IMG/VR virus record: IMGVR_UViG_3300045988_171725
Location: 32,001-96,000 of that record
DNA: 64,000 bases
Source: a virus
Direction: 5' to 3' (one strand)
Under the pieces are notes generated by a model. The model did no database searches, was not told the origin of the DNA, and saw nothing but the letters and a program-made list of their open reading frames with translations. This document shows, piece after piece, positions 11,721 to 43,250 of the stretch. Position 1 is the stretch's first letter; the number at the start of each line of letters is the position of its first letter. Made by a program: the position numbers and the translations under genes.

Positions 11721-11823
11721 AAACGTGTAAATTGCGGGACAGCAGGTTCGAAACTGTTTCCTTTTGACTCCTTACCGAGAGGATTACCGCTTTTTATATA
11801 TTTTTGTAAGGAGGATATTAAAA

Positions 11824-17849: not shown

Positions 17850-17953
17850 TTTACAAAAATTATGGCTTTAAAAACGTGGTTAATCCGCTGCGTTTTTTTA
17901 TTGCTTGATTTTAATATATATAAATTTATATAAATTAAAAAGGAGAAATTAAT

Positions 17954-18787: not shown

Positions 18788-18969
18788 TGAATTGTAAATT
18801 TGCCACTGTGAAGGATATGAATCCTGTTAGATGCGAAATAAATAACGTTGGGAGATGCCCTTTTCAGTATTGGTGTACTGCCGATAGATGTTATAAATGT
18901 ATCGGTGACGCAATAAAATGTAAACATTATCAAGAAGCAGATAATTCTAAACAACTGAATAAAAAATAA
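18787..18969 (+). CDS. Small Cys-rich ORF (8 Cys in 60 aa), coding status uncertain
   Basis: The ATG overlaps the tail-protein stop (TAATG). There is no clear SD. It lies inside the transcript ahead of the terminator. Confidence 0.35.
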   Translation: MNCKFATVKDMNPVRCEINNVGRCPFQYWCTADRCYKCIGDAIKCKHYQEADNSKQLNKK

Positions 18970-18976
18970 ATAAATT

Positions 18977-19022
18977 AGAACCCGTTGAATGTGTTATGCG
19001 ATACGTTCGCGGGTTCTTTTTT
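18977..19022 (+). terminator. Intrinsic terminator
   Basis: Stem AGAACCCG (18977-18984) / CGGGTTCT (19010-19017), followed by a T-run. Confidence 0.75.
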
Positions 19023-19142
19023 ATCTATCGTGTAATAAAAGGAAAATTTTATTCAACGAAAATAGTAAAAAAATGAGATGAAAGATATAAAAAGAGGAAT
19101 AATAACACAAAAAAATTCTAAATATCACAAGGAGGGTTTATT

Positions 19143-20342
19143 ATGTTGTATTTAGACTATGCAAAGCCCGTTGATGGCGGTTATATACTTAATTTCTTCG
19201 CCGATAAAGTTGAGGATATGGGATCCATAACTGGCGGGAAAGAATTCATCACAAAGAACGGTACGAATTACGGCGTTCCCCTTAAAGGTTCGACGGTGGT
19301 AATAACTGCTCCTGACAAAGAGAAGAAGACGTTCGTTCTCGATGAAAACGGGGAATGGAACGAGGGCGGATTAGACCCGAACCAATTTTACACGAAGGAA
19401 GCTGCCGATGAAAAATTCATGGAAAAGGCAGGCGGCTCGATAACTGGCGATCTTACCGTTGGCGGTAATCTTGTTGTAAACGGAAAGACGACCACGGTTG
19501 AATCTGAGAACCTCGCCGTTAAAGATAAACTTATCGAGGTTGCGGCTGGAAACGCGGCGAAGCTTGCAACACCCGCTGGTCTCGTTGTCCCGAAATATGA
19601 TGGGACGAATTCTGGTGCGCTGGTATTTGACGGCGACGGAATTGCTTATGTCGGTGACGTTGTTTTGAACGCGAAAGGTGATATAGACGTTTCGCAGAGT
19701 GACCTTGCGGCGTTGGCGGTAAAGAAAGATATACCCACTGATTATCTTGTCGGTGGCGAGCAGACAGCCACTTCTGAAGACGATGGCGGAGCTAACGTAT
19801 TCACATTCACGAAAGCTGACGGAAAGACCGCGACATTTACAGTAAAGAACGGAACGAAAGGTTCGACTGGTGCCGCAGGCGCGAAGGGTGATAAGGGTGA
19901 CATTGGTCCTCAAGGACCCAAAGGCGCGACTGGTGCCGCCGCTGGTTTTGGGACACCCACCGCGACAGTTGATAACGCAACTGGTGTACCGAGTGTGACT
20001 ATAACTGCGAGTGGAGAAGACACTGCCAAGGTGTTTGCTTTTGCATTCAAAAATCTCAAAGGTGAAAAGGGAGAACAGGGTCCTGCAGGTCCTGCTGGAG
20101 CAGCGGGTGCAGCTGGACCGAAAGGAAACGCTGGTCCGCAGGGACCTATTGGTCCGACAGGCCCGAAAGGAGACCAGGGTGAGACTGGTCCCGCAGGTGC
20201 AGCTGGCGCGAAAGGCGCAACGGGCGCGCACGTTACAGCTATAACACTTACGAAGGATTCGACGGGCGCGATAACTGGCGGTACGGCTTCTTTGAGCGAT
20301 GGCACGAGCGTTTCCATAACGGTAACGGTTGCAGAGGCGTAA
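19143..20342 (+). CDS. Collagen-like tail fibre protein
   Basis: 399 aa, SD AAGGAGGG. It has two G-X-Y tracts ([30 protein letters not shown] and [56 protein letters not shown]). The N-terminal domain is paralogous to 49729-50544. Confidence 0.75.
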
Positions 20343-20417
20343 TGAATAATATAAGCGCGGCGATTTCTTTCATAAATTGAAGGCAATTGCCGCGCAAAAT
20401 AATAAAAGGAGATAACA

Positions 20418-20750
20418 ATGGATACCGAAAAAATCGTTTTATATATTTCTTTAGGAATTATTTGTCTTTGCTTGATCATAGCTTTAATTGTGAAAATTGT
20501 GAAGCTTTTCAAAATGCCCAAAGAAGAAAGAGAAAAGGTTATAAAGACTTATCTAAAAGGCGTAATCATGCTGGCGGAAGAGGAAATTGTTGGTACGAAA
20601 AGAGGTGAGGAACGCCTTGCGATGGTTGAAGAATATTTTAATAAAAATGCCCCACTGACGTATCGGATTATTTTGTTTCTTCTCGGGAAAGACAATTTAA
20701 AAAATTTAATTGAAGACGCCCTCGCCGAGATTAAGGAAGTGCTGCAATAA
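20418..20750 (+). CDS. Small membrane protein, LL-H-holin-like architecture
   Basis: 110 aa, SD AAAGGAG. One N-terminal TM helix ([23 protein letters not shown]) is followed by a helical, charged C-terminus. The family assignment is from memory only. Confidence 0.4.
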
Positions 20751-20807
20751 TACAGAAATTTTGTTGTAGAGGTATTTCCTTGAGGTGATGGTATATGGAG
20801 GAAAATA

Positions 20808-21890
20808 ATGGCGCAAAAATATAAAAGTATATGGACGGGTCCGCAAGTCGACGAGGCAGTCGGGAACGTCTCAAAAAAAATAGATAAAGACAGTTTGACT
20901 GGCAGTAACGGGATAACTATCAACAAAACCGATTCAACGATAGAGATAAGCGGAAAGGGATTGGTACAGAAGGTAGCAGAGACTGAAGCGGTGAAATTTT
21001 ATACAACTAGAATGGGAGAATCGGTTTGGCAAGCCTCTCAATTTCCAGTTCCATATGCCGCTGTACTTTTTGATGCTGAAGGAAGTCTTAGAGGGAATAT
21101 GGGAGCTAATCCTACAGCGAATACTCTTACAAACAGGAAATATGTAGATGACGCGATAGCGACAAGTAGCGCAACAGTCGACGGAACATCAATCGTCAAA
21201 GATACCGACGGAAAAATTCAGCTTAATCAGGAGTATATTGACTATCTCGACAACCAGCTTTATCAGCCACCCGCTATTTCGGTTTTCACCATGCTTGATG
21301 CGGCGGGTGCTGCGCTTCCCACGAGTAACGAGTTGGGCACGACTTTAAGCGCGGCGGCGTTTAATCACCAAGAAACGAACATCAAAAACATCCAGGGTGA
21401 TAACGTCGAGTTGCACATTAACAATGCGGCGGCTGCGACAATTTCAGCCGCGAAGAAAGACGTTGCAACAAAGGTGACTCTCACAACGGCGCAGAGCATA
21501 ACAAACAGTACCAAATTCACACTCAAAGGCACGAACACGAAGGGCGCGGCTTTGAGCAGGGATTATCAAGTCAACTTTTACAGATACGCATACACAGCGA
21601 CGACAGACGCGACAACCGCTCCGACAAGCGGCGCAACGCAACAAGCGGCGGTCAGCACTTTCGCGTCGAACGGCAGTACGTTCAACTATACCAAGGGCGG
21701 GTATATATACTTCTATACCGACAACACAGGCAAGAAGGTTCAGACGAACGTTTTAGGTCAGTGGGCGGATGTTGACACGACAGACATGGGCAAAGTTACG
21801 CTTACGCAGAATAACGGCGCAACGCACGAATATACGTGTTACAGAATCGGACCTTTCATTGAGACGGGTTCAGCTAAATATAGAGTCTAA
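20808..21890 (+). CDS. Tail fibre-type protein
   Basis: 360 aa, SD GGAGGA. The N-terminal motif KYKSIWTGPQVDEAV is shared with the collagen-like fibres (Y-x-S-x-x-T-G-x-x-[IV]-D-x-A-[IV]). The body is Ala/Thr-rich. Confidence 0.55.
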   Translation: MAQKYKSIWTGPQVDEAVGNVSKKIDKDSLTGSNGITINKTDSTIEISGKGLVQKVAETEAVKFYTTRMGESVWQASQFPVPYAAVLFDAEGSLRGNMGANPTANTLTNRKYVDDAIATSSATVDGTSIVKDTDGKIQLNQEYIDYLDNQLYQPPAISVFTMLDAAGAALPTSNELGTTLSAAAFNHQETNIKNIQGDNVELHINNAAAATISAAKKDVATKVTLTTAQSITNSTKFTLKGTNTKGAALSRDYQVNFYRYAYTATTDATTAPTSGATQQAAVSTFASNGSTFNYTKGGYIYFYTDNTGKKVQTNVLGQWADVDTTDMGKVTLTQNNGATHEYTCYRIGPFIETGSAKYRV

Positions 21891-21902
21891 GGAGGGTGAA
21901 TT

Positions 21903-23465
21903 ATGGCTTTAACGATAAATACAAACATTAAGAACGAGGCTAATGGCTACTCTTTAGATGCTTCACAAGTCAAGGGCGGATATGTGGTAGTCGCGGACGA
22001 AGCAGAAAGAAACGCAATCCCCGCCGCAACAAAAGTAAATGGAACGACGATTTACCAGGCGGATGTTGGAAAGGAATATAGATGGAATGGAAGCGAATGG
22101 CTCGAAAATACAGCTGCAGAAGATTACGCAAATAAAGTCGCTTTAACTGTTCCTATCTCTGAAACTGAAACAGTATTAGTTCCTGAAACAACACTTACTT
22201 TTGCTCTTGACGCAGAACATGATACAGGAATGTATGTAAGCGCGAAAAATGCTATTTCTTTTACTTTTAAAGAATTACAAAAATATAGAGTAACTTGGGA
22301 TGGTGTTGATTATATTGCTTATGGCAGATATTTTACTTGGGTTAGATTAGATGATAATGGCTCAATAAAAGCTTGGTATGATTGGCAACTTATAGGTAAT
22401 GGTAATAATGAATTAAATGCTTTTTTTAAGCAAGATAAAAATTTACCTTTTGCTATTACACGAGATAAATGGGAAAATGCTGGTGAATGGCTAGTTTATG
22501 CTGTTGATGGCAGTACTGCTAGTTCACACACATTAAAAATTGTTTCTTTATCAGGTGAATATAAAATAGCATATCCTGAAAATATTTATAATTATAATGA
22601 TAATCTAAGACAAAGTGGCGGATATAATAGTGCATACATTGGATTAAATATAATAAATTCTACTGTTAATTCTGCTTTTGCTGCTGGCGATGGAAACTGG
22701 ATAAGAAGAGGCCATTCTAATAATATATTAGGCAGCGGAAATATTTGTGATACTAATAATAGATATAATTTTTTGGCTGGCGCATTTAATAATGTTACTG
22801 GTTCTGCTAATTCAAAAGATTTAGCAAATATAATTTTAGGATATTCTAACAACAATATTTGTAAAAGTAATAATAAAACTAATGGAGCAAATGTTATTGC
22901 TGGACTTTTCAATAATCTTTTAGTGGATGGAGATTTTGTCTCCCAAGCAAATTTTATAAGCGGTCAAGGAAATACATTAAAAGCAACTAATAATAATATT
23001 ATTGGAAATGCTATATTAGGAAATTATAATACAGTAGATTCTCATGCTAGTACTTTTATTTCTGGATATAGAAATATTAGTGATAGAAATTATCAAGCTA
23101 TATTTGGAAAATATTCTGCTGCCGATTCAACTGCTTTATTAAAATTTGGTGCTGGAACAAGCAATACCGATAGAAAGAACATATTCGTTATTCATGACGA
23201 AGGACGTGTAACCGCATTAGGTGCACCAATAGATAATGATGATGTAACACGTAAAGGCGATTTTAAGACCATCAACGGTAATTCACTTCTCGGAAGCGGC
23301 GATCTTACAATCGCAGGTGGTGGGACCGAGGTTACTCCAAACCCGACTTTAAGTGGAAGTGAAGCGGCTCTTTCCGCTCTTCAAATAGGCGATACGAAGT
23401 ATCGGATAGAAGGCACTTTAACAACTCTTACGGTTGGCATTGATTCCTCGCTTTTAGGAGGTTGA
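21903..23465 (+). CDS. Tail fibre-type protein with Asn/Gly-rich YadA-head-like short repeats
   Basis: 520 aa, SD TAAGGAGGG. The N-terminus reads ...ADEAERNAIPAATKVNGTTIYQADVGKEYRWNGSEW. The central region has repeats such as GSGNICDTNNRYNFLAGAFNNVTGSANS...GYSNNNICKSNNKTNGANVIAGLFNN. Confidence 0.6.
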   Translation: MALTINTNIKNEANGYSLDASQVKGGYVVVADEAERNAIPAATKVNGTTIYQADVGKEYRWNGSEWLENTAAEDYANKVALTVPISETETVLVPETTLTFALDAEHDTGMYVSAKNAISFTFKELQKYRVTWDGVDYIAYGRYFTWVRLDDNGSIKAWYDWQLIGNGNNELNAFFKQDKNLPFAITRDKWENAGEWLVYAVDGSTASSHTLKIVSLSGEYKIAYPENIYNYNDNLRQSGGYNSAYIGLNIINSTVNSAFAAGDGNWIRRGHSNNILGSGNICDTNNRYNFLAGAFNNVTGSANSKDLANIILGYSNNNICKSNNKTNGANVIAGLFNNLLVDGDFVSQANFISGQGNTLKATNNNIIGNAILGNYNTVDSHASTFISGYRNISDRNYQAIFGKYSAADSTALLKFGAGTSNTDRKNIFVIHDEGRVTALGAPIDNDDVTRKGDFKTINGNSLLGSGDLTIAGGGTEVTPNPTLSGSEAALSALQIGDTKYRIEGTLTTLTVGIDSSLLGG

Positions 23466-23467
23466 TT

Positions 23468-24979
23468 ATGGCAATTAAAAGAGCGATAAAAGCGGGCAAT
23501 AAAAGTATAATTTCATTCAAGAAGGTAATTAAGGTTGGTGAGATTACACAGTTAGTTGCTAAAGATAATTTTTTATTTTCATCAGTAGTGACAAGTGGTG
23601 TGACTTTTACTAATAATGGCAATGGCTCAATTACTGCTGTTGGGACCACTACAGCCCTCATTGCAAGATTGATATTATCACATACTAAATTAGAACGATT
23701 AAAAAACGGGCATAAATATTTAATTTCAAGTGGTCAAGATGATAATACAAACAATTATGTGGCTATAAATTTTTATGATGATAATCAAAAAAATTTAGGA
23801 AGTTATTCAAGTTTTTCATCTCCAATTTTTACATTTGATGGGATATATTATGCTTCTAATATTGGCGGCATATATATATATGAAAGAATAACTGGCGCAG
23901 AAATAAATCGAACCTACATCCCCCAACTCTTCGACCTGACCGAGATGTTCGGCGCGGGACACGAGCCCGCCACCGTTGACGAGTTTAAGGCGAGGTTCCC
24001 TGAGGCGTATTACCCTTATCAAAGGGCGGTTTTGAACGTGTATAATAAGGTGGTCAGACCGTGCGTGAGAAAGGGAGAGGTTGTACAGTTAGTCAACCCA
24101 GTAGATTTTGGTTTTACAACACAGACTGTTAATGGTATTACTTTTACAAATAATAATGATGGAAGTGTAACTATAAACGGAACAGCAACTAGTGATGCAG
24201 CATATAGATTAATATTAAACAGAGACAAAATTATAAATGGATATGTATATTTATATGGTTCTGAACAAAATACTAATGATTATGGTGTTGCATGGGGAAC
24301 TAATTTGCCACAGAATTTAACTTTTAATACTGCTTCAATTAATAGTAATTATACTGTTATAGTTAAAAATGGGGCTACGGTAAATAACATAACTATTTTT
24401 CCGCAGATATATAATCTCACTGCCATGTACGGAGCAGGTAACGAGCCAAAAACTCTCGCTGATTTCAGGAAAGATTATCCAGAGAGTTATTATCCGTATA
24501 GCCCAATTCAGACGAAGAATTTGTTCGATATAAGGAAAGTTAGTGGGTTGATTAGTAGTCTATTTGGCAATCTTAATTATTATCTTACTAAAAATTTAAC
24601 TCAAAATTCTTTAAAAATTCGTTATGGTGGATACGGAATGGCAACGTTTTTAAAAGAACCATATATCTTGTCAGCAGGGACTTATACATTTAGTTGTAAT
24701 TGTGATTATGATGTTATTAACAACAGAGGCGGTGTTTCTTTGTTCGTTGGAAAGAAGGCAGCAGACGGGTCGAGAATAAACGAGATAGCTAGTGGTCCTT
24801 ACCGCCAGGTACATCGTTTAGTTTTAACTTTTACCCTGGCGGAAGAAACCGAAGTTTATTTATCTCTGCAAGGTGACGGCGGATCTGCTAATTATACCAA
24901 TCTAAACAACGTGTTTTTCAATATTCAACTCGAAAAAGGCTCAGTCGCCACAGATTACGTGCCGCATGACTACATTTAA
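23468..24979 (+). CDS. Tail fibre / receptor-binding-type protein with an internal domain duplication
   Basis: SD TAGGAGG precedes ATG 23468 (the track start 23462 is TTG). There are two ~170-aa repeats, each of the form xGxTFTNNxxGSxTxxGTxT...[IY]PQ[LI][FY][DN]LTxM[FY]GAGxEPxTxxxF[KR]xx[FY]PExYYPY. Confidence 0.6.
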   Translation: MAIKRAIKAGNKSIISFKKVIKVGEITQLVAKDNFLFSSVVTSGVTFTNNGNGSITAVGTTTALIARLILSHTKLERLKNGHKYLISSGQDDNTNNYVAINFYDDNQKNLGSYSSFSSPIFTFDGIYYASNIGGIYIYERITGAEINRTYIPQLFDLTEMFGAGHEPATVDEFKARFPEAYYPYQRAVLNVYNKVVRPCVRKGEVVQLVNPVDFGFTTQTVNGITFTNNNDGSVTINGTATSDAAYRLILNRDKIINGYVYLYGSEQNTNDYGVAWGTNLPQNLTFNTASINSNYTVIVKNGATVNNITIFPQIYNLTAMYGAGNEPKTLADFRKDYPESYYPYSPIQTKNLFDIRKVSGLISSLFGNLNYYLTKNLTQNSLKIRYGGYGMATFLKEPYILSAGTYTFSCNCDYDVINNRGGVSLFVGKKAADGSRINEIASGPYRQVHRLVLTFTLAEETEVYLSLQGDGGSANYTNLNNVFFNIQLEKGSVATDYVPHDYI

Positions 24980-24996
24980 AAGGAGGAAAAGGAGAA

Positions 24997-26289
24997 ATGG
25001 CAGTAAATTATACAGATGTCCAAAAGACAGAAAAATATATATCAAGAACTAACTTTGACGCCTTGGAAATGGCGGCAGTTCCCGAAGGGATGGAATTCAA
25101 TATCGTCGATCAGATTCACGAGAGTGATTTAGACAGTGACGTTTTACAGAAGCTTAACAACAACGCGAAGATAAATACAGCGAATACCTTTACAGCGGCA
25201 CAAACGTTTAAGAAGGATATCACGATCGAAGGGAATATCTTTCAGAACGGCAGCGCTTATGAGACACACGCGGAAAAGCTTTATACGAAGAATGACATGA
25301 TTTACACGCGCGATGGGGCGACCGCCGCGTTGGCAGATAACGCTTATACGGGAATTCAGGCAGTCAAGTATGACGGTACGAATGACGGGCAGTTGGTGTT
25401 CGGAAAAGATGGCGTCGCACGTGTTGGAGATGTCGGGAATACACAGCCTTTGGCGACGAGGGCGGAGGCAGGCGCGATTGTGGACAAGCACTTGCTTCAG
25501 TGGGACGCGGCTGGACAGACACTGGTTGACAGTGGAAAGAGCGTGAGTGATTTAGAGGGTGGCGGAGGAGATGTAACCGCCGCTGGCACTAATACTTTCA
25601 CGGGGAACAATACTTTTACTAACGGTATAACTGTGGCGGCAGATAGTATGGCTACTTCTGCTCATATCGTATATGGAAGCGATGGTATTAAAGTAAAGAA
25701 AGAAGGAACCCCTGTGGCTAGCCCAGAATTTTCTATTAAAATTCCTACTAATACACCAGGAACTTTTGCGGTAATAAATGCTGCAAGTAATACCCTCAAT
25801 ACTACTGGTTTAAATGTTTCAAGTTCTGCAATAATAGAAAATATGCTTCTTGGCGGTTTAACTTTTAAACCAACTGTCACATATTTTAGTGTAGGAAGTT
25901 TTAAAATCACGCTCCCTACAAAGACAAGTACTCTCGCCACAACAGACGATATAAGCTCTTTTGTTAAAAATAATGCTTCTACAAATTTTTCGGTTTATGA
26001 TGAAGTCAGCGGTGACAAATCTACACTTGGTTATAGCGGGCTAACATTAGAAGATCCTGTTGTTCATAATACTTGCACACTAAGTGCCGCTGGATTAGTA
26101 CACAGACAAATGAGTAATGATGGAGCAATAACAAACCATAATACTACCTTGGCATTTGAGAGTGCTGGTTTAACTACAACATTAACAGTTCCTAATAAAA
26201 CTGGTACTCTTGCTCTTACAGGTGATATTCCGATTAGTTCGGCAACTTTAAGCGACAACGACACAACCTTAACGCTTATTCTTAGATAA
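24997..26289 (+). CDS. Tail fibre protein
   Basis: 430 aa, SD AAGGAGGA. It has fibre-type motifs (NTANTFTAAQTF, GTNTFTGNNTFTNG). It shares KYDGTNxGxLVFxxDGxAxVGDV with 19143-20342. Confidence 0.65.
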   Translation: MAVNYTDVQKTEKYISRTNFDALEMAAVPEGMEFNIVDQIHESDLDSDVLQKLNNNAKINTANTFTAAQTFKKDITIEGNIFQNGSAYETHAEKLYTKNDMIYTRDGATAALADNAYTGIQAVKYDGTNDGQLVFGKDGVARVGDVGNTQPLATRAEAGAIVDKHLLQWDAAGQTLVDSGKSVSDLEGGGGDVTAAGTNTFTGNNTFTNGITVAADSMATSAHIVYGSDGIKVKKEGTPVASPEFSIKIPTNTPGTFAVINAASNTLNTTGLNVSSSAIIENMLLGGLTFKPTVTYFSVGSFKITLPTKTSTLATTDDISSFVKNNASTNFSVYDEVSGDKSTLGYSGLTLEDPVVHNTCTLSAAGLVHRQMSNDGAITNHNTTLAFESAGLTTTLTVPNKTGTLALTGDIPISSATLSDNDTTLTLILR

Positions 26290-26300
26290 GGAGGAACGGT

Positions 26301-27017
26301 ATGCCTTGGGTAATAGATAGTAAACTTAAAGTGGAAACGACGTTGCTTCAAAAAGTCGTGGTAAATGGGAAAGAGCTTTATAAAGTTGATTGCGTGGATA
26401 AAAACGGCGTAAAGCGCACGGTTTTTTACAAATATTGGGAACCCTCTGGTGGTGGCAGTGATAGCGAAACCAAACAAGCTGTGACAGCAGGAACTCTTGC
26501 CTTTGGGATAATTAACGAAGCGATAACCGATGAATTGTTAGAACATTTTAGTGTTCTTGAATTTAACACGGCAACACATGGCGATTTATCAAGTACATAC
26601 AATTTCAATCGAACAACTGCGGATGGCGGCGAAGAGGAAGTTGATGTTGCGCAAATGATACTTAATTACTTCTGTTGTATAATGCAGAAAGGTTATAGCA
26701 AGCTTGACGGAATTCAATCGGTATTAACTGAAGCTTGTGAAGACGGTTCTTTTAATCAAATCGTAGAACAATACGAATTGGGAACTAAAATAACCCAATG
26801 GATAAACACATGGATTCAGGAGCAAACTGACGCGGGGACTTATACCGAAGCCGCATATCAAGAATTCATTTCGGCAACAACGGAAGGTGGAGTCACTACG
26901 TTTAAAGATAGAATGAATAACGACGAGAGTTTCAAACAAGCAAGACAGGATTTCATGACGAATATTGCTGGTAAATTAGGGATTACCGTCGAGCAGTTAC
27001 AGAATGGAAATTGGTAA
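26301..27017 (+). CDS. Fibre-associated module (possible fibre tip or assembly domain), homologous to the C-terminal ~230 aa of 29862-31244
   Basis: 238 aa, SD TAAGGAGGA. The two align end to end, for example VDVAQMILNYFCCIMQKGY...IQSVL...GKLGITVEQLQNGNW* versus [19 protein letters not shown]...IQSVL...[15 protein letters not shown]. Confidence 0.45.
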   Translation: MPWVIDSKLKVETTLLQKVVVNGKELYKVDCVDKNGVKRTVFYKYWEPSGGGSDSETKQAVTAGTLAFGIINEAITDELLEHFSVLEFNTATHGDLSSTYNFNRTTADGGEEEVDVAQMILNYFCCIMQKGYSKLDGIQSVLTEACEDGSFNQIVEQYELGTKITQWINTWIQEQTDAGTYTEAAYQEFISATTEGGVTTFKDRMNNDESFKQARQDFMTNIAGKLGITVEQLQNGNW

Positions 27018-27053
27018 GGAAAACATAAAATAATATACTTTCGGAGGATTTAA

Positions 27054-27839
<786 letters not shown>

Positions 27840-27924
27840 ACTATTACAATTTAATGCGGCGGGAATTTCTCAATAAAAAAAAGAGATTTCTGCCGCAAAA
27901 AACAATCAAGGAGGGATTTGCCAT

Positions 27925-28932
27925 ATGGCAAGAACAACGGTATATAACGAAGATTTGTCAAAGGAGTGGCAGATCGCAAACCCGAAGAATCAGAAATTAC
28001 TCAGAGAATTTATTCGTTATTGCGTGGCGAACGATAAAAGCCCGCAAACTTGTAACCAATATGAGTCGCAACTCAAAATCTTCTTTTGCTGGAATTACAG
28101 GGAGAATGACGATAAATTTTTTGTTGACATAAAGAAGCGCGAGCTTGTGAACTTTTTCGGTTGGGGGCGGAGTATCGGTTGGAGCCCGTGCAGGCTCGCT
28201 TCTCTTCGCGCGGCGTTAAGTTCGTTCAGCAATTACATAGAACGAATACTTGATGAGGATTACCCGACATTCAGAAACCTTGTGAAGGTTCTTGAACCGA
28301 TTCACCTCGAAGCCGTCCGAGAAAAGACAATAATCGAGAAAGGCGATATAATGGCAGGGATTGAGCGGTTAGTTGCGCTTGGCGAATACCAATACGCGTG
28401 TTTCCTCTCACTTCTCTTTTCGTCTGGAATGAGGAAAGCGGAAGCCGCGCAGATGAAAGTCTCATACTTCACAACCGATAAGGTAATCGCGTTTAGGGGG
28501 CTCGCTTATATGACTCCGAAAATCAGGACGAAAGGACACGGGGCACGTGGTAAGCAGGTGCCGAGATACGTGTTCAAAGAAACGTTTGACAAATACTTCG
28601 AGCTATGGCTTAAAGAGCGCGAAAAGCTCGGAATCGAGATAGACGATTTATTCGTTATAAAAGGCACCGACGGGAAATACCACCCCGCGAAAGGACAGAA
28701 CTTTTCACATTGGGCGGTGAAAATCGGCGAGTTAATAGGCATAAATTCACTATATTGTCACAGTTTGAGACACGCGTTTACGACGTATTTGAAACGGCAG
28801 AACTTCCCGACCGACGTCGTTCAGAAAATCCAATCGTGGGGAAGCGCAGATATGGTGGCGAGATATGATGACAGAAGCGATAGCGAAGAGTTGGATAGCT
28901 TTTTTGAAAAAATGACCGAAAAGGAGAATTAA
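27925..28932 (+). CDS. Tyrosine recombinase / phage integrase family protein
   Basis: 335 aa, SD AAGGAGGG. It has a SAM-like N-domain and a catalytic-domain pattern: Arg in SSGMRKAEA, HSLRHAFTT (H-x-x-R), and Tyr in MVARYDDR. Confidence 0.85.
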   Translation: MARTTVYNEDLSKEWQIANPKNQKLLREFIRYCVANDKSPQTCNQYESQLKIFFCWNYRENDDKFFVDIKKRELVNFFGWGRSIGWSPCRLASLRAALSSFSNYIERILDEDYPTFRNLVKVLEPIHLEAVREKTIIEKGDIMAGIERLVALGEYQYACFLSLLFSSGMRKAEAAQMKVSYFTTDKVIAFRGLAYMTPKIRTKGHGARGKQVPRYVFKETFDKYFELWLKEREKLGIEIDDLFVIKGTDGKYHPAKGQNFSHWAVKIGELIGINSLYCHSLRHAFTTYLKRQNFPTDVVQKIQSWGSADMVARYDDRSDSEELDSFFEKMTEKEN

Positions 28933-28933
28933 A

Positions 28934-29689
28934 ATGAGTACAATACAAGACGGCACGAGAAGCGACGAAGCGAGAGCACGTGTAGAAGATAGAAACAATC
29001 TTGATGCTATAAATAAGATATATGTTGGAACTGGAGAGAGCATCACTGTAAATGGGCATACGGTTTGGCAGACGGAGGGAAAAAATATAATAAAGGCGAT
29101 AAACGATGCAGGAACAGTTGCAAATGCGACAAATGCGGCTTCCGCAACCAATGCTGACTATGCCGATAACGCAGGAAATGCGACAACGGCAGATCAAGCG
29201 ACAAATTTAACTTCGACGGGTAAAATTGGGGAATACGACACCAATCAAATAATTAATTTTAAAAATGGTTTTGTGCGTAATGCTGACTATGCCACTAACG
29301 CAGGTAATGCGACAACGGCAGATAACGCAGGGAAAACAGACTTAACGAATGGAAAATTTAAGGGTAATCTTCTCAATAAAGATATTTATATAGATTTTGA
29401 TGAAGGTAAGGACAATTATTATTATTTTTTCATGTGGGTACCTTATGAAGGGTTTAGACATGTTGTAGATTTAGGCATTGTATATTTTGATGGGGGGACT
29501 TATGACTCTTGGAGTGCAATTGCGACTTGTTATGGAGGAAATACCGCTTCTGATTTGACCCTTGACGAATATGTAATACGTATTGTTACATCTGGTATAG
29601 TTTCGGTCTGGAAAAAGGATAATACTACAGGGAAATGGGTTCAACAAAACACAGATAAAATTCAGTTATTTTACAAAAAAATCAGGTGA
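28934..29689 (+). CDS. Fibre-like protein with Ala/Asn-rich repeats
   Basis: 251 aa. The ATG lies 1 nt after the recombinase stop, with SD AAGGAG inside the recombinase 3' end. There is an internal ~44-nt direct repeat (29150-29193 and 29279-29322) encoding NADYAxNAGNATTAD. Confidence 0.5.
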   Translation: MSTIQDGTRSDEARARVEDRNNLDAINKIYVGTGESITVNGHTVWQTEGKNIIKAINDAGTVANATNAASATNADYADNAGNATTADQATNLTSTGKIGEYDTNQIINFKNGFVRNADYATNAGNATTADNAGKTDLTNGKFKGNLLNKDIYIDFDEGKDNYYYFFMWVPYEGFRHVVDLGIVYFDGGTYDSWSAIATCYGGNTASDLTLDEYVIRIVTSGIVSVWKKDNTTGKWVQQNTDKIQLFYKKIR

Positions 29690-29698
29690 GGCGAAGTT

Positions 29699-29845
29699 AT
29701 GGCTCAGAAATATAAAAGCATATGGGTATCATTGCAAGTCGATACTGCGGTTAGAGAAGCTTCTAATAAGATAGATAAGTCAGACATCGAGATTGCGAAT
29801 AGAGCGGCTTGGCAATCACCGCCGATAAAGGGCGCCTCATTATAA
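29699..29845 (+). pseudogene. Truncated fibre N-terminal adaptor fragment (48 codons)
   Basis: SD GGTGAGG precedes ATG 29699. MAQKYKSIWVSLQVDTAVREASNKIDK... parallels the first ~27 aa of 20808-21890 (MAQKYKSIWTGPQVDEAVGNVSKKIDK), then diverges and stops at 29843-29845. Confidence 0.45.
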
Positions 29846-29861
29846 ATAAGGAGATTAAGGT

Positions 29862-31244
29862 ATGATGAAAGATTATATATCGCAACATACAGGTTCGAGA
29901 ATAGATGATGCAATAGATAAAATTCCCTCCGCCAACCCTAATTCCGATAGTATTATTGTTGTAAATCAAACAGGTTTCAATAGCACTTATAAACCTTTAT
30001 CTGGGTTATTGCAAAAAACGGTCATAGATAGTGCTTTATCGAGTAAATCCACTAATCCTATAGAAAACAAGGTTGTTACTTTGGCTATAAACAACAAAAT
30101 TTCCAAACCTTTAAATACGGAGTTAGATGGTCAATTTCTCTATAACGCAGGCACTTATACTGTGTGGAAAACGATACCGCGTGGTTCTCAAGGGAAAAGT
30201 GCATATGAAATTTGGGAAGATAACGGTCATAGTGGAAGTCAACAAGATTTCCTGACCTCCCTTATTGGGCCTCCTGGACCTCAAGGAGATCGAGGGCAAC
30301 CTGGAAATGCTGGGGAAAAGGGTCCCACTGGGCTTCAAGGACCTCCTGGAAAAAACGGGGCAAACGGAGCGCCTGGAGCCAAAGGAGATACGGGTCCCAC
30401 TGGTATACAGGGACCTCCTGGGGAGGATGGTGTCAGTATAAAAGGACCGACGGGTCCTCAAGGTCCCCAAGGAGAACCTGGGGGTCCTGGACCTTCTGGC
30501 GAGATTGGGGATTCGGGGTTGCCAATAATGGAGATGGGATTTGAAGAAGGTAATCAAGATACGGAAACAGCTGACAAAATTATTGTAACGCTTTCCGATG
30601 GCACAAAAATTGGCATGACATTCAAAGTACCTGGAAATAGTCCAACGCAAGGGGGCGGTGGTGGTTCGGGCGGAAGTACAACCGATCCTATTACACCGCA
30701 AGAAGATACTGTAACGAAGCAGGAAGTTTTAGCGAGTGCTGGCGGGCTTGGCGTAATCAATAGTTCTATAAGCGACGAAGTAACTGAAAAATTTGACACT
30801 TTTGATCTTGGTTTGGCAAATTCGTTAGAAGGGTTTAATTTTGAGAGAGAGCTTCCAGAAGATGGAGCAGATGCAGAAAGGTTAGTAGACGTAGATCAAA
30901 TAGTTCAAAATTATCTCTGTTTTATTATAAAAAAAGGGTATGAAACAAGGCGCGAAAAAATACAATCTGTATTGGACGATATAATTTATGACGGAACGTT
31001 TGATAGTATTATTCAAAAATATGAAGTATGTACTAAGGTAACCGAATGGATAAATGCCTATATACAAGATCAGAAGTCAAAGGGGAGTTATTCCGAAGGA
31101 AAATTTCAATCTTTCCTTATAACGACATTAAGAGATTATATGAATGCTGATCAGGGTCTCTTGAAATCTCGTCAGGAAATTATGGAAGAGGTTTCTAACA
31201 GATTAGGGATAACATTGAAACGATTAAAATCGGGAGAATGGTGA
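29862..31244 (+). CDS. Collagen-like tail fibre protein fused to a 26301-type C-terminal module
   Basis: 460 aa, SD AAGGAG. It has the adaptor motif [18 protein letters not shown] and the G-X-Y tract [55 protein letters not shown]. The C-terminal 230 aa are homologous to 26301-27017. Confidence 0.75.
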
Positions 31245-31265
31245 TTAAGTAAGGTGAGGTGAATT

Positions 31266-32666
31266 ATGAATGATAATTTTGAATCGCAATTTACTGGTAA
31301 AAGAGTAGATTCTGCAATTAATAAAATTCCCGAAAATACTCCTAACCAAGATTGTGTAATTACAAATGATAAAGACGGCGCAAATTATAAGCCATTAAGT
31401 GATTTTGACGTCAGATTAGACGTTGATTCGACTTTATCCAGCACTTCCAAAAACCCCGTTCAAAATAAAGTGGTTACTGAGGCTTTAAACAGAAAATTGC
31501 AGCTCCCATTAAGTTCAACAACTGGATATTTAAGAAATAAAGGTTTTAATAATAACGAGTGGGTGCAAGTAACCTCTGGACCGACTGGAATTTCGGCTTA
31601 TCAAGATTGGATAGCTTCTGGAAATACAGGTACACAATCTGATTATTTATTATCCTTAATTGGCCCGCCTGGGGCAAAGGGGATAGTTGGGTTGAAAGGA
31701 GAGACAGGTAATATAGGGCTTATAGGGCCAACGGGAGATCCTGGGAAAAACGGTACAGATGGAAAACCTGGTGAAAAAGGAATGGTTGGACCGCAGGGAG
31801 ACCCTGGGCCCCAAGGGCAACCTGGAAAAAATAAAATCGGAACCATGGGCGCAACGGGTGTTGCAGGTAGTAAAGGAAAAGATGGACCACCAGGAGTAAA
31901 GGGGGCAAATGGTAAGACTATAAGGTCTTTTACTACGCATGTTGCATTAAATAGAACCACTAATAGATATGAATGGCTTCCAACAGAAACGTATGAACCG
32001 TATATAACGGTTTCTTATAGCGATGGGACTTCTCAGGATATATATATCGAGGAATATCAGGCGCCGTCGACTCCTACTTTCGCGGGTGGAATTTATTTTT
32101 CAACAGATAGGAGTAAATATCCGACGCCATCAAATTACGACTATATGATGTCATTGGAGGCAGCAGGAATATTACAAGACGGGAACCTTTTTATATCTGA
32201 TTCTGATCTCGATTCTTTCCAAAGCCTGATGAATTCAATGGCAACAGATTATAGAAGAGCGATTATATACCCACCAGAAGAAAGCAGTTTATTGACAGAC
32301 TGTCTTGGCGGCCCCGCATTTTCTAGCGTTTGGACGAATTTAGCAAATAACGAAAATAATGCCCTCATACTTGGGTTAAATATCAGTCAGGACATTTGTT
32401 ATTACGGAAGGATTGAAGAAAAGGCTCTTGAGGGTTTTCATCCTATGGAAGGGGTTTCAAATTATAATGTTTTGAAAGATATACCGATTTTATTTTTTGG
32501 ATTAAGAGAAGGATTGTCCGCTTCGATGTTCGAAACAATCAGGAAAACCCAGAAAGGTATAACGATTTTTGGAGGCTGGGCTTATAGCATGGTTGCTTCT
32601 AAAATTTATGGGAGCACGGATTATACGGCGCTGGTAACTTGGGATAAAACTCCGATTTCGATATAA
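31266..32666 (+). CDS. Collagen-like tail fibre protein
   Basis: 466 aa, SD AAGGTGAGGTG. It has the adaptor motif FESQFTGKRVDSAINKIP, the G-X-Y tract GPPGAKGIVGLKGETGNIGLIGPTGDPGKNGTDGKPGEKGMVGPQGDPGPQGQPGKN, and a unique C-terminal domain. Confidence 0.75.
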   Translation: MNDNFESQFTGKRVDSAINKIPENTPNQDCVITNDKDGANYKPLSDFDVRLDVDSTLSSTSKNPVQNKVVTEALNRKLQLPLSSTTGYLRNKGFNNNEWVQVTSGPTGISAYQDWIASGNTGTQSDYLLSLIGPPGAKGIVGLKGETGNIGLIGPTGDPGKNGTDGKPGEKGMVGPQGDPGPQGQPGKNKIGTMGATGVAGSKGKDGPPGVKGANGKTIRSFTTHVALNRTTNRYEWLPTETYEPYITVSYSDGTSQDIYIEEYQAPSTPTFAGGIYFSTDRSKYPTPSNYDYMMSLEAAGILQDGNLFISDSDLDSFQSLMNSMATDYRRAIIYPPEESSLLTDCLGGPAFSSVWTNLANNENNALILGLNISQDICYYGRIEEKALEGFHPMEGVSNYNVLKDIPILFFGLREGLSASMFETIRKTQKGITIFGGWAYSMVASKIYGSTDYTALVTWDKTPISI

Positions 32667-32692
32667 ATTATTTACAATAATGGAGGTACAAT

Positions 32693-33020
32693 ATGATTTC
32701 AGTAAAAACATTTTACGCTTATGGTAAAGAAAAGCCAATTACAGGCGAGAGTTCTGTTATTTTTTAACAATTCTGCGGAAACCTTCACTATGCAAGTTGA
32801 CGAACTAGCGGGTAGTGTTGAGTTATATGGTACCGCAGATTTCGATTCAAATATTTTTTACAAACTCACGGGCAATAGCTCGTCTTTTGAGTTAGTAAAC
32901 AAAATCACAACCGACGGGATTTATCACTTCTCAATCGAAGGCATTGCGAAAATCAAATTTGAGGTCGAAAACACCAATAAAGATTTGATTGTATTTTGCC
33001 GAATGACAAAGGGGGTATAA
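32693..33020 (+). CDS. Small beta-rich protein whose frame is broken at a T6 run (+1 shift, or 1-nt homopolymer error)
   Basis: SD GGAGG lies 6 nt before ATG 32693. That frame stops at TAA 32765-32767, right after T6 (32760-32765). The +1 frame continues to 33020 (track ORF 32721-33020), but its own ATG has no SD. Confidence 0.45.
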
Positions 33021-33024
33021 TCTT

Positions 33025-35271
33025 ATGACGGATAAATTAGCGAGAGATTTAGCGTTAAGTGCTTTAGACAAAGTGAATAAAACTGTCGAAGGCGTTCCGA
33101 AAGATTACGTCGACGAGCATTTGTCGAAGAAGGTAGATAAAATAGAAAGTTCGTCCGCAAACCCGCGCTTATACGGGGTTAGCGAGGCGGGGTCTCAAAC
33201 TAGTTATTTCGCCACTCAAACTGCCAACGCGTACACAATTCCGATGAGAGACGCGAGCGGCAGATTTCAAGTTGAAAGCGGGTTGGCTCCGAAACAAGCT
33301 GTAAATAAAGAGCAGCTCGATGCCGCATTAGATACGGTCGCGAAGTTGGCGGAGCCAAACACTTTTACGGAACAAAATACATTTACATCGGAAGTGAAAT
33401 TTTACGGAACCGTTGAACACACGTCCAACGTGAATATAACGAACGGTTTTCTGAAAATATTAAACGGTAACGACAAAGATTATGTTACGACATATAATGT
33501 TGATAACATTAAGGTTGAGGAAAATGGAAGCGAATACACGTTGGCATTTCCAACCCAATCTGGCACATTAGCGTTAATCGACGACATCGCTGCCAAAATA
33601 GACGAAAAAATCGGTTTCAAGCATTCCGAACTCAAAAACAATGACGTTTTTGATAACGGAGTTGTGCAAAAAGAGGACGTGTGGAAAACAGAGGATACAG
33701 ATGTTTCGTTAAATATTCGTCATTCAGACAATATAAATCAGTCTGAAATAACGGTTTCGAAGGCATTTGCAGAAATAGGCGTTCAGGAAGTAACTGATTT
33801 ATCGACTTCTTCTTCTCAAATAACGTGGGACGCTAACAGCATTAACATAACAAGTACGCGCGGAGCCGATACTCTCACGACGGTTATCGTAACCCCTGAC
33901 GGCGCGACGCTCAATGGTGATAAAATCGTGACCGAGAAAACGGTTAACGCGAAAGTTGCGCGTATTCCAGAAGGTGTCGAATTAACTGACCCCGAAGGCG
34001 CAATGCAGGGTAATTTGACGGCGGAGCAGCTGGAAAAGTTACAATTCAACAAAGCGAATTATATCCTTTTCGCAGGGAAGAAATATGATTTGCGGAATGA
34101 GCGTTCACAACAAGATTCGTTATCTTACGTTTACAACGATTATTTGAACAGTCGTTGTATTCAAGACGTTATAACGATCACGGTTTCGACTCGTTCGTGG
34201 GTACGCAACTCGTGCACGTTGGTAACAAACAAAGATTATGGAGATGGTACCGCTGGCGCGGTGTCGATAAAGAAAGACTTTTCTGGCGGGTTACAATTGG
34301 CGACGACAGATGGAGATTTAAGTATATATGGCGCGGTTGATGCGGATATAGCTGGCAGGAATTCCAAGCGCCCAATTACGCCTATAAACCTCAACAAAGC
34401 AGTTTTAGCGGCGTTGACCGACGCGAAAAAGGTTGAACCAACCGAGCAACAAAAAACCGATTTTAAGGCAGCATGGGGAATTATCGACGCTGTAAATATT
34501 CTCGACGCGGAAATGTCCGATGATAGCACTAATGCAGTTCAGAACAAGGTTATTAAAGCAGAATTAGATAATCGTGTTAGGTGCTCAACAAACGTCCAAA
34601 GCGGGCAAGTAAAGGTCTACTGCGCGACACAGAATAACCCAAACGATGTTTGTTTGGTTTCGAGTTCTGGAGTACAAAACTCGATTGCTCGATATACGTC
34701 GACGGGGCAGCTCGCTGTCGGGAGAGAGCCGAGCGGCGATATGGAAATCGCTAACAAAAAATTTGTGGAAGGAATTGTTCCGAAATATGGGGCGGAACTT
34801 CCAAACCCAACCAACGACGCATACAAAATCGGGTGCTCGTTTTTAAACACGACAACTGGCGGCTTATATGTTTTGGTTGCTTCTGGAAGCGCGAGTAATC
34901 GTTCTTGGCAGTTACAAACCACGATTGAAAAGCCGAAATGGAGAAACACGCTACCACACATAAATGACACGCAGGAAATCGACGCGACAAAGGTCTTATT
35001 TACGAAAGTCACGATTACGACGATCGATAGTACAAACTTTCCTGGAATGAGCGGAAAATCTGTAACAATCCAAGGGCTGAGTTCTGACGGGTTCGCGGCT
35101 GGCACGATTGTGTGTGACGAGACGACGGGCGGTATACAGTATAGCCTGTGTTTTATTGGCTCAATAACTTCGAGCAGGGCGTCTGGGGTTTTAATAAAAG
35201 GCTCTAACGCGGTCGCAGTTATAAGTGTTGATAATCCCGAAGTTTCTTTTGCTTACGAGTATTTGTGGTGA
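33025..35271 (+). CDS. Tail fibre protein (long)
   Basis: 748 aa, SD AAGGGGG. It has fibre-type motifs (KQAVNKEQLDAAL, EPNTFTEQNTFTSEV, IANKKFVEGIV). Confidence 0.7.
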   Translation: MTDKLARDLALSALDKVNKTVEGVPKDYVDEHLSKKVDKIESSSANPRLYGVSEAGSQTSYFATQTANAYTIPMRDASGRFQVESGLAPKQAVNKEQLDAALDTVAKLAEPNTFTEQNTFTSEVKFYGTVEHTSNVNITNGFLKILNGNDKDYVTTYNVDNIKVEENGSEYTLAFPTQSGTLALIDDIAAKIDEKIGFKHSELKNNDVFDNGVVQKEDVWKTEDTDVSLNIRHSDNINQSEITVSKAFAEIGVQEVTDLSTSSSQITWDANSINITSTRGADTLTTVIVTPDGATLNGDKIVTEKTVNAKVARIPEGVELTDPEGAMQGNLTAEQLEKLQFNKANYILFAGKKYDLRNERSQQDSLSYVYNDYLNSRCIQDVITITVSTRSWVRNSCTLVTNKDYGDGTAGAVSIKKDFSGGLQLATTDGDLSIYGAVDADIAGRNSKRPITPINLNKAVLAALTDAKKVEPTEQQKTDFKAAWGIIDAVNILDAEMSDDSTNAVQNKVIKAELDNRVRCSTNVQSGQVKVYCATQNNPNDVCLVSSSGVQNSIARYTSTGQLAVGREPSGDMEIANKKFVEGIVPKYGAELPNPTNDAYKIGCSFLNTTTGGLYVLVASGSASNRSWQLQTTIEKPKWRNTLPHINDTQEIDATKVLFTKVTITTIDSTNFPGMSGKSVTIQGLSSDGFAAGTIVCDETTGGIQYSLCFIGSITSSRASGVLIKGSNAVAVISVDNPEVSFAYEYLW

Positions 35272-35326
35272 GATAAAACCCTCGTTTTATTACAAGGAGA
35301 AATTTTAGGATATTTTTTAGGTAAAA

Positions 35327-35373
35327 TTAGAGACTTCGCTACGCGCGAGGTCTCTAATTTACTATATTTTTTT
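35327..35373 (+). terminator. Intrinsic terminator closing the fibre block
   Basis: 13-bp stem TTAGAGACTTCGC (35327-35339) / GCGAGGTCTCTAA (35345-35357) with one G-U pair and a 5-nt loop. It is followed by TTTACTATATTTTTTT. Confidence 0.6.
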
Positions 35374-35415
35374 GGAATTTGGGAAATAAAAAAACAACAA
35401 GGAGGCACGGAATTT

Positions 35416-35910
35416 ATGGATATAAAACAGACGTTGATACAGGCGTTGAAAAAAGATGTAAAAATAGACTTAGAACGGAAATTAGAAAAAGTGCGAATTC
35501 CGTGCATGAATTATTTGAAAGAAAACGCTCTAAGGATTTTTAAAGAGAAAATAACAGAAGTTTATAAAATAAACTCTGATAGAATACAAGTAATAGATTT
35601 ACCACTGTTTTTAAAAGCAGTAAAAATTATAGATAGAGGCTCATGGGGATTTACTATAAAAACAGAAGAAGACGAATTAGATTTTAAAACAAAATCAGGT
35701 GAGCCGATTTATCAATATACAGACGCTGGACGTTCTTATGTCGACGGGATGGGTAAAGAAGTTCATAATTTAGATGAATATTGGCATTCGCCGATAAATG
35801 GAAGACGTGAATATGAATATTATAAAAATGAAGCTATAAACGATATACAGGATTTTATAAATACTAAATTTATTTTATATGTTCAGAATAAATTAAACGG
35901 AGGTAAGTGA
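35416..35910 (+). CDS. Hypothetical protein in the position of a tail assembly chaperone
   Basis: 164 aa, SD AAGGAGG. It ends 1 nt before the tape-measure ATG. I saw no slippery site. Confidence 0.45.
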   Translation: MDIKQTLIQALKKDVKIDLERKLEKVRIPCMNYLKENALRIFKEKITEVYKINSDRIQVIDLPLFLKAVKIIDRGSWGFTIKTEEDELDFKTKSGEPIYQYTDAGRSYVDGMGKEVHNLDEYWHSPINGRREYEYYKNEAINDIQDFINTKFILYVQNKLNGGK

Positions 35911-35911
35911 T

Positions 35912-42673: not shown

Positions 42674-43250
42674 ACAAGGTTACGCAGGGGAAGAAGCCAA
42701 TCAATTGATTGTCGCTTCCTCGAAACTCGCTAAACTCGGTATGATTTCGACCACTGAGGCAACTAAAGATTTGACGAGCGCGATAAAAGGCTTTAAACTT
42801 TCGACAGAAGACGCGATGTCGGTTGTCGATAAATTGACAAAAATAGACCAAGTGGCTGCAATTTCCGCAGGAAATTTAGCGGAAGGTCTCGCGCGAGTCT
42901 CCACTACCGCTCAACAAGCAGGGCTTTCGCTCGACGAAACCGCCGCAATGGTAACTACGATTACCGAAGTTACGCAGCGTGACGCAAGCACGGCGGGTGA
43001 GGCGCTCAGAACTCTTATTTCGAGATACTCTAACGTTAAAGCGGGCGTATTCACGGATATGAGCGATAGCGCCGAAGAGACTTCGGGTAATATTAACGAT
43101 ATCGAAAAAGTATTGGGTAAGTTAGGGATTAGAATTCGTACTTCTGGAACTGAAATGAGAAGTATCGAAGATGTCCTTGACGAATTGGCTGAAAAGTGGG
43201 ATACACTTGATGATGTAAGTCGTAATGCAGTTGCGAGTGCTTTTGCTGGT
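42674..43250 (+). CDS. Tape measure protein, exon 2
   Basis: It carries the conserved core QGYAGEEANQLIVASSKLAKLGMISTTEATKDLTSAIKGFKL...STAGEALRTLISRYSNVK...AVASAFAG. There is no SD or ATG of its own. Confidence 0.8.

Follow-up and report, generated by a model that had tools for sequence, protein, structure and literature searches.

In Bacillus phage SPbeta, the genes from the tail tube gene to the tape-measure gene are recorded in the order yomU-youA-yomT-yomS-yomR-yomQ-yomP-yomO-yomN-yomM-yomL-yomK-yomJ-yomI, with yomU annotated as the tube, yomS as XepA-like, yomR as an XkdV-like 'minor tail protein', yomQ as a 'tail fiber protein', yomM as a site-specific integrase and yomI as the tape measure. 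The yomR, yomQ and yomP genes make up a cassette of structural tail proteins (PMC6834076). PBSX of Bacillus subtilis also places a fibre cassette beside a small XepA-type beta protein and a holin, in the order xkdV-xkdW-xkdX-xepA-holin (PMC6834076). Here we consider a block of candidate fibre genes (positions 19143-35271) in a 64,000-nucleotide stretch of viral DNA, hereafter the window (positions 32,001 to 96,000 of IMG/VR record IMGVR_UViG_3300045988_171725), in which the genes are named by their position. The block is probably the tail-fibre locus of an SPbeta-like siphovirus of the gut, enlarged and fast-evolving, typical of its lineage and holding exchangeable accessory receptor-binding fibres that are turned over by ordinary recombination.

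The block is a single same-strand run of genes within the late structural operon, reading from tube to tape measure. The sizeable open reading frames (ORFs) between 19143 and 35271 all lie on the + strand with short intergenic gaps, and the flanking genes and hairpins described below are on the same strand. A preliminary description of this DNA had given the order as tube gene, terminator, fibre block, terminator, an ORF in the position of a chaperone gene and then the tape-measure gene, and was right in both coordinates and gene order. It had also called the genomic position unusual, which does not hold for this lineage: SPbeta has the same layout, its yomR/yomQ/yomP cassette also lying between yomU and yomI, so that the position of the block is not anomalous here, though it is unlike the lambda-type order. 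Judging from the gene orders compared, it is the layout of the family to have fibre genes and a tyrosine recombinase between the tube and tape-measure genes, and the window holds an expanded version of it.

The lineage of the phage is read mainly through its relatives. A megablast search of positions 17000-36000 against GenBank phages returned no relative, the only match being 49 nucleotides of collagen-coding sequence. Metagenome contigs found through homologues of the recombinase have neighbouring genes that carry the YonD_N, YonB, YomX_C, YomV_2nd and YomU_Tube Pfam families; the YonD, YonB, YomX and YomV matches, which are to head and connector proteins, sit on orthologues in L013-L015 (35-60% identical), not on the window proteins themselves. 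These Pfam families of the neighbours, together with the 35-60% identity to structural proteins of the window, lead to an SPbeta-like placement, and the phage belongs, on this gene content, to a distant, mostly uncultured branch of the SPbeta-like large siphoviruses. The tube gene itself (17954-18787), which forms the left conserved flank of the block, has a precomputed match to PF27173 (YomU_Tube) on an identical product of 277 amino acids; its BLASTP match to SPbeta YomU is weak (E 7e-4), as are its matches to tail tubes in the PDB (E 0.015), and our local copy of Pfam gives no match. The related contigs measure 124-147 kb. One contig binned with a Bacteroidaceae metagenome-assembled genome (MAG) was the only match in a genome collection and was considered as a pointer to the host, but it is too weak a basis to name one.

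The earlier reading of the block as one insertion is not supported, as the block is built around ancestral residents that are also present in relatives without a fibre array. The corresponding slot of L013 has no large fibre genes, yet besides the recombinase it holds a small, weakly XepA-like gene, a holin-like gene and, ahead of the tape measure, a short gene. The recombinase and the holin-like gene are, on this comparison, best described as ancestral residents of the interval. The window agrees with SPbeta in the position and in the kind of gene found there, though not in the individual fibre genes.

The content of the interval varies widely among close relatives, which we define as four IMG/VR contigs (c172778, c175117, c013426 and c181905) whose tube proteins are 87-88% identical to that of the window at the amino acid level. 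The flanking DNA is ~80-90% identical in all four, with homology stopping at ~19205-19219 and resuming at ~35273-35319. The interval that opens at the end of the tube gene and runs to the gene for a conserved 164-amino-acid protein before the tape measure is 8.3, 10.8, 16.7 and 18.8 kb long in the relatives, against 16.6 kb here, and their gene sets differ. The closest, c172778, shares 19143-27017 as a mosaic and has different genes 3' of the recombinase. In the other relatives the shared parts of the block, apart from the recombinase and pieces of the 33025 type, are short or of low identity. A cassette of two genes, 32721 and 33025, follows the recombinase in the window and in c172778, and precedes it in c175117, c013426 and L027. 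Its 748-amino-acid gene is split in c172778 and c175117, and only the C-terminus is left in c181905. Across the 27 loci in which both genes were found, tube and recombinase are anywhere between 1.1 kb and more than 9 kb apart. In the more distant relatives L020, L022 and L024 (59-73% identity in the recombinase), the same slot holds Mtd_N (major tropism determinant N-terminal) and LRR_5 proteins, and the tape-measure genes behind it encode 3170-3920 amino acids. Composition within the block is a mosaic too, with GC content at third codon positions (GC3) from 0.19 to 0.54 per gene.

These comparisons establish, at the level of gene content, that the block is hypervariable and modular, with gene decay. 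The preliminary description had proposed an exchangeable, modular repertoire, and had named as its refutation a set of relatives that carry the same genes without variability. The slots of the relatives do vary in content, and so the proposal survives: the flanks are conserved, interval sizes and gene sets differ in the four relatives, and N-terminal modules occur on different C-termini. The frequency of gene decay would mean that individual fibres are dispensable.

How firmly the genes can be called fibres differs from one to the next. Ten fibre-type genes had been claimed; by our assessment of the sequences, fibre identity is solid for four (19143, 27054, 29862 and 31266) and reasonably supported for four more (24997, 33025, 20808 and 28934), and the remaining two (21903 and 23462) gave no informative match. 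We take fibre-type modularity to mean a shared N-terminus with a swapped C-terminus. The four solid cases are the collagen-type genes named earlier, and the collagen assignment is borne out in each: PF01391 was matched on 19143-20342 (53.8 bits, E 1.7e-14), 31266-32666 (45.3 bits, E 7e-12) and 29862-31244 (36.9 bits), all above the cut-off of 27.2, and precomputed on 27054-27839. Their matches to tail-fibre PHROG families reach E 1e-17 to 1e-20. The first of the four has a 75-amino-acid N-terminal adaptor of a type we call class A. The other three have a class-B N-terminus, that of 27054 being linked to 29862 and 31266 by 46% and 39% identity; 31266 ends in a unique C-terminal domain, and 29862, which has paralogues in the block, ends in a fused domain resembling the product of 26301.

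That resemblance corrects another part of the preliminary description, which had given the C-terminal domains as all different. The 238-amino-acid product of 26301-27017 is homologous to the C-terminal domain of fibre 29862 (38% over 189 amino acids, E 1e-42). It had no matches in PHROG, Pfam and PDB searches, and from this homology it is a candidate assembly or distal domain.

In the window, the class-A domain, beginning 'MLYLDYAKP', is found on 19143 and 49729; each relative has it on one or two genes of its block, joined to other C-termini. Its AlphaFold2 model is a small beta domain with a predicted local distance difference test score (pLDDT) of ~90. Matches in BFVD are limited to uncharacterised proteins of gut siphoviruses, and a homologue search found only 15 sequences, mostly fragments. 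The second carrier of this domain in the window, 49729-50544, is the first gene after the tape measure, where the distal tail protein is usually encoded; its product had no match in family searches and is a candidate baseplate component or further fibre.

Class B comprises the first ~135 amino acids common to 27054, 29862 and 31266, of which 20808 shares only the first ~20. Its motif reads 'Y-x-S-x-x-TG-x-x-ID-x-AI', followed by S-x-NP-[VI]-x-NK and then by a pre-collagen motif of the SAY type. The shared motif had been reported earlier, and we could align it in 20808, 27054, 29862 and 31266; the short ORF at 29699-29845, also listed then, is a 48-codon remnant of a 20808-type gene, as seen in its translation and in a DNA repeat (D13) shared with 20803-20834, and c172778 carries a full-length gene of 335 amino acids at its position. 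Class B includes two fibre motifs that are widespread: a search with residues 1-131 of 29862 returned 1392 cluster representatives, in which the matches are often many repeats in long proteins (up to 2800 amino acids and up to 31 matched stretches). Class C, with the motif 'IYVGTG...TEGKNI', is the N-terminus of the gene 3' of the recombinase. In the window this is 28934-29689, whose C-terminus is variable; such a gene always follows the recombinase, and the motif is present in 5/5 genomes by a comparison read by eye, neither aligned nor scored.

Among the other genes in the reasonably supported group, 24997-26289 shares with 19143 a segment of 80 amino acids (42.5% identity, E 1e-10), as had been noted before, and matches phrog_34297 (E 3e-29). 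The gene at 20808-21890, with its short class-B motif, has an 83% identical orthologue in c172778 and no match in PHROG, Pfam and NCBIfam-type family searches. The 748-amino-acid protein of 33025-35271 forms a mobile cassette with the small gene that precedes it and has N-terminal matches to minor-tail PHROGs. Among its 91 homologues, the N-terminal 25-45% recurs with other C-termini, including those of YadA-head and LRR_5 types.

Two further genes are carried here as candidate fibres. The first, 21903-23465, encodes a modular protein with an apparent inserted low-GC domain at amino acids 69-463: its orthologue in c172778 consists only of amino acids 1-68 and 464-520, and GC content is 0.31 in the part coding for the central 395 amino acids against 0.45 and 0.49 at the ends, so that this part looks, from composition and alignment, like a recent domain insertion or deletion. 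The second, 23462-24979, encodes 505 amino acids, and inspection of the translation by eye suggests an internal duplication; it matches only phrog_35108 (function unassigned) and has a 79% identical orthologue in c172778.

Accessory ORFs had also been described in the block, and they are present; the earlier reading had missed that one encodes a recombinase (27925-28932) and another a holin-like protein. The latter, 20418-20750, is a small membrane protein that scores 24.3 bits against PF09682, just under the cut-off of 24.9; its L013 orthologue is 42% identical, and in relatives the gene is found on either side of the recombinase. The small beta-rich protein of gene 32721 (32692-33020), which always precedes a 33025-type gene, belongs to a family alignment that includes the L013 gene with a weak precomputed XepA match. 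A BLASTP comparison with YomS has E 0.03 and an hhalign comparison E 0.014 (3% probability), both marginal. The protein is possibly YomS/XepA-like, the link through the weak XepA match of L013 being indirect. At 32757-32762 the window has a run of six T where c175117 has five, and the extra T puts the ancestral start at 32692 out of frame; a true frameshift, a slippery site and a faulty assembly would each account for it.

Several results weigh against an enlarged SPbeta-type fibre locus. The product of 33025 has no similarity to SPbeta YomR (E 2.2), and no YomR orthologue is detectable. Searches of PHROG, Pfam, NCBIfam and PDB with 21903 and 23462 found no recognisable fibre feature. The AlphaFold2 model of 33025, a monomer built from a 40-sequence alignment, is poor (mean pLDDT 48.8), and the well-modelled class-A domain has no structural analogue in the PDB that would indicate a docking place. 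Finally, cassettes switch sides of an apparently active recombinase, of which simple homologous exchange is a less neat account. With the 33025 model, the top Foldseek match in the PDB is the T4 gp34 fibre, which speaks for a fibre but is too weak to be usable as proof (E 1.7e-3, TM-score ~0.1). PDB sequence searches with 33025, 24997, 21903, 23462, 26301 and 32721, the last also as a profile, gave nothing usable.

We picture the locus as follows. The ancestral interval would have held a small, possibly YomS/XepA-like protein, a holin-like protein, a YomM-type recombinase and a short protein before the tape measure, and would also have been the site of side-fibre genes. In this phage the slot would have grown to some 8-10 fibre or adhesin genes, the collagen-type ones being expected to form trimers. 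The genes are built from at least three interchangeable N-terminal anchors (classes A, B and C), each followed by a shaft, of collagen or another type, and by distal domains that are unrelated. Such common anchors may let varied distal domains dock on the same few sites of the tail, and one phage could in this way carry several binding specificities that can be swapped between lineages. Turnover would come from ordinary recombination, whether homologous or illegitimate, in the conserved flanks, in the shared stretches that code for N-termini and collagen, and at the boundaries of genes; losses would be frequent. The two hairpins that bracket the block would probably reduce transcription twice, once past the gene for the abundant tube protein and once ahead of that for the low-copy tape measure. 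Incorporation of the block products into the virion, their docking sites and the terminator role are, in this scheme, inferred from the sequence.

A first alternative keeps the genes as fibres and moves them along the tail, so that they would decorate the long shaft or the neck rather than the tip and act as general adhesins (for instance to mucus or glycans) instead of specific receptor binders. The genes do adjoin the tube gene and not the baseplate genes, and a tape measure of ~3300 amino acids leaves much shaft surface to decorate. Tail length usually follows a rule of ~0.15 nm per tape-measure residue, which would give a tail of roughly 0.5 µm. The class-A domain of 49729, encoded first after the tape measure and beside the baseplate genes, hints instead at docking near the tip, and we regard a shaft or neck location as unlikely; this judgement concerns fibre location only.

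The second alternative is that most block products stay outside the virion, either as cargo for modification of the host surface or phage exclusion, or as genes that are largely decaying and non-functional. Signs of gene decay in the block and its relatives would agree with this, and the best NCBIfam matches of the collagen proteins are to bacterial collagen-like adhesins, far below the cut-off. A conserved N-terminal anchor with a variable C-terminus is, however, the usual signature of virion receptor-binding proteins (RBPs), and the best PHROG matches are to phage tail-fibre families. The genes are packed on one strand in the late structural operon from tube to tape measure, and no signal peptides or cell-wall anchors were seen in the translations, which were read by eye with no prediction tool. 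The SPbeta genes at the same place are, moreover, regarded as tail proteins (PMC6834076). On balance, a non-virion role for most of the products seems improbable.

The third alternative turns on the recombinase embedded in the block. The gene at 27925-28932 encodes a Xer-like tyrosine recombinase (PF00589, E 2.6e-16) orthologous to SPbeta YomM (29% identity, E 4e-18). In 27 orthologues, some as little as 45% identical, residues R170, K203, H279, R282, W305 and Y314 do not vary, and these active-site residues suggest that the enzyme is probably active. It is present in all relatives, with 391 related IMG/VR contigs, and the same recombinase is encoded just before the giant tape-measure gene in SPbeta (yomM), in Bacillus phage Tsamsa and in the Lactococcus 949 group; many gut phages have it too. 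On the function of YomM we found nothing in the literature searched, the SPbeta papers among it making no mention of YomM, and the words 'integrase' and 'recombinase' are both missing from the paper on phiL47 (PMC3888941).

Such an enzyme could in principle excise, insert or reorder the fibre cassettes, as in an integron or shufflon, and so create receptor-binding diversity. Every relative has it within the block, packed among late genes of the same strand and with its catalytic residues conserved as described; the 32721 and 33025 cassette, the holin-like gene and class-A genes switch sides of it at constant orientation; and two independent assemblies that break within 0.7 kb downstream of it are a weak hint in the same direction. 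The junctions speak otherwise. No 12-mer or 14-mer is common to at least four of 76 cassette junctions from five genomes, orthologous gene starts aside, and the boundaries of cassettes coincide with a stop codon and ribosome-binding site and have no core in common. Gaps are mostly 10-85 nucleotides, which leaves no room for attC-like sites. No cassette is inverted in the four relatives, all homologous cassettes being on the + strand, and a repeat finder returned only weak inverted repeats (16-32 nucleotides, 75-94% complementarity), none at cassette edges. The integron-integrase model TIGR02249 reaches 21 bits where its cut-off is 265, and in Tsamsa, phiL47 and L013 the recombinase stands directly before the tape measure with no fibre array there. 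With no repeated sites at the cassette junctions, recombinase-driven shuffling is unsupported and very unlikely, and that the YomM family acts on the fibre locus by moving same-orientation cassettes, as a phage-borne integron-like diversity system, is equally doubtful.

The two assemblies that end within 0.7 kb past the recombinase are L103 (145 kb, with the same recombinase and upstream gene set) and L019 (62 kb, in a Bacteroidaceae MAG bin), and these ends may reflect strain heterogeneity there. A clustering of contig ends by the recombinase was looked for among the closer relatives and set aside, as by a rough tally there were 3 where 1.5-2 would be expected, which is not significant.

On the left flank, the tube gene is followed by a Cys-rich ORF of 60 amino acids (18787-18969) that is 74-92% identical in 4/4 relatives and had no match in a family search. 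A terminator-like hairpin at 18977-19022, followed by a run of six T, comes next; the fold of 18972-19030 has -24.6 kcal/mol (z -6.6 against shuffled controls), and the hairpin is within the DNA that is conserved in relatives up to ~19205. On the right, a second terminator-like hairpin with 16-bp arms lies at 35324-35360, the fold of 35318-35375 having -25.2 kcal/mol (z -7.4 against shuffled controls); its T-run starts 3 nucleotides past the stem, and the surrounding DNA is again conserved in relatives. The palindrome is unique, with no second copy across the window. The bracketing terminators claimed in the preliminary description are well founded in that both hairpins are strong against shuffled controls and stand in conserved DNA. 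A generic terminator scan of the region found 17 against 14.5 expected, which is no enrichment, so the case for terminators rests on these two individual hairpins. Rfam gave no RNA family match in the whole window.

Between the second hairpin and the tape measure lies the gene for the conserved protein of 164 amino acids (35416-35910), which is 66-71% identical in relatives and had no match in family searches. The giant tape-measure gene begins at 35912, and its first piece (35912-41506) is colinear with the uninterrupted tape-measure protein of L013, which has 3322 amino acids. In total the protein has ~3300 amino acids encoded in four colinear pieces, and the piece at 42705-43292 matches positions 41-201 of PF10145 (E 1e-25), the similarity to this family continuing in 42672-43250. 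The gene is cut by three insertions of 1.17-1.44 kb (41507-42671, 43251-44688 and 47422-48660), each with an ORF of homing-endonuclease type: 41614-42642 (DUF7487), 43401-44543 (HNH_repeat) and 47547-48518 (CapR/treble-clef). Their junctions match the uninterrupted L013 protein with zero residues lost, and the second insertion is missing from c172778. Rfam found no group I or II intron in these insertions, even at E up to 1. Two free-standing ORFs resembling homing endonucleases (317-1444 and 11764-12945) have, by eye, repeated helix-turn-helix-like motifs; one of them lies directly 3' of the major capsid gene, and there is a ~30% identical homologue in relatives.

For a large and mostly uncultured SPbeta-like clade, the interval from tube to tape measure would be where host-recognition genes accumulate and turn over. 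This is useful for annotation and for the prediction of host range, as RBPs should be sought there too and not only after the tape measure. Human faecal or gut samples seem to have yielded most of these phages. The three recurring N-terminal anchors may serve as handles by which the fibres of the clade could be engineered or classified. A tyrosine recombinase with a conserved active site in the tail operon of many large siphoviruses is a point of interest in itself, and if it did prove to exchange fibre cassettes, it would be a phage-borne, integron-like generator of receptor-binding diversity.

Among known systems that vary adhesins, Gin of phage Mu, Cin of P1, the R64 shufflon (Rci) and integrons have a site-specific recombinase gene in or beside alternative adhesin-coding segments. 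The block differs from these in having no inverted repeats, repeated core sites or inverted segments, and its type of recombinase is also present where no fibre array exists. Judged as an invertible segment or shufflon, it has no inverted sites at cassette edges and no segments found in both orientations among the four relatives; as an integron, it has no junction motif shared within a genome and no IntI-type integrase score. A diversity-generating retroelement finds no counterpart either, with no direct repeat longer than 67 nucleotides in the block and no reverse-transcriptase-like ORF seen in window translations, which were read by eye without scanning every ORF. Mtd_N domains occur only in the slots of more distant relatives.

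Side-by-side RBPs with shared N-terminal anchors and unrelated distal domains are known from Klebsiella phage PhiK64-1 and E. coli phage CBA120, where such arrays give multivalent binding or a broadened host range. The block resembles them in its likely function. In those phages the arrays come behind the baseplate genes and experiments have demonstrated a branched attachment; the array of the window precedes the tape measure and has no recognised depolymerase domains. PBSX is a contractile tail-like particle with its fibre cassette after the baseplate genes, unlike the window. The window resembles it in that its block includes a holin-like gene and that a small beta protein is encoded ahead of fibre 33025, but kinship of its 32721 protein with XepA/YomS is weakly supported.

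Both phiL47 (949 group) and Tsamsa have, like the window, a tyrosine recombinase immediately before a tape-measure gene of more than 3000 amino acids in a structural operon. The tail of phiL47 measures 480 nm (PMC3888941). Unlike the window, these phages have only a few small genes from tube to recombinase, and their fibre genes come after the tape measure.

With yomU-yomI of SPbeta, the window shares the tube, small genes and fibre genes, a tyrosine recombinase, short genes and a giant tape measure in the same order; the tube is of the YomU family, the recombinase is homologous to YomM, and other structural Pfam families are shared by way of the relatives. It is unlike SPbeta in that one XkdV-like fibre cassette in ~8 kb is set against ~10 candidate fibre genes in 16 kb here, on both sides of the recombinase, in the very low similarity of the structural genes, and in its uncultured, probably human gut source. 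The block is an enlarged example of a known arrangement of the SPbeta lineage, neither a new mechanism nor a truly anomalous position.

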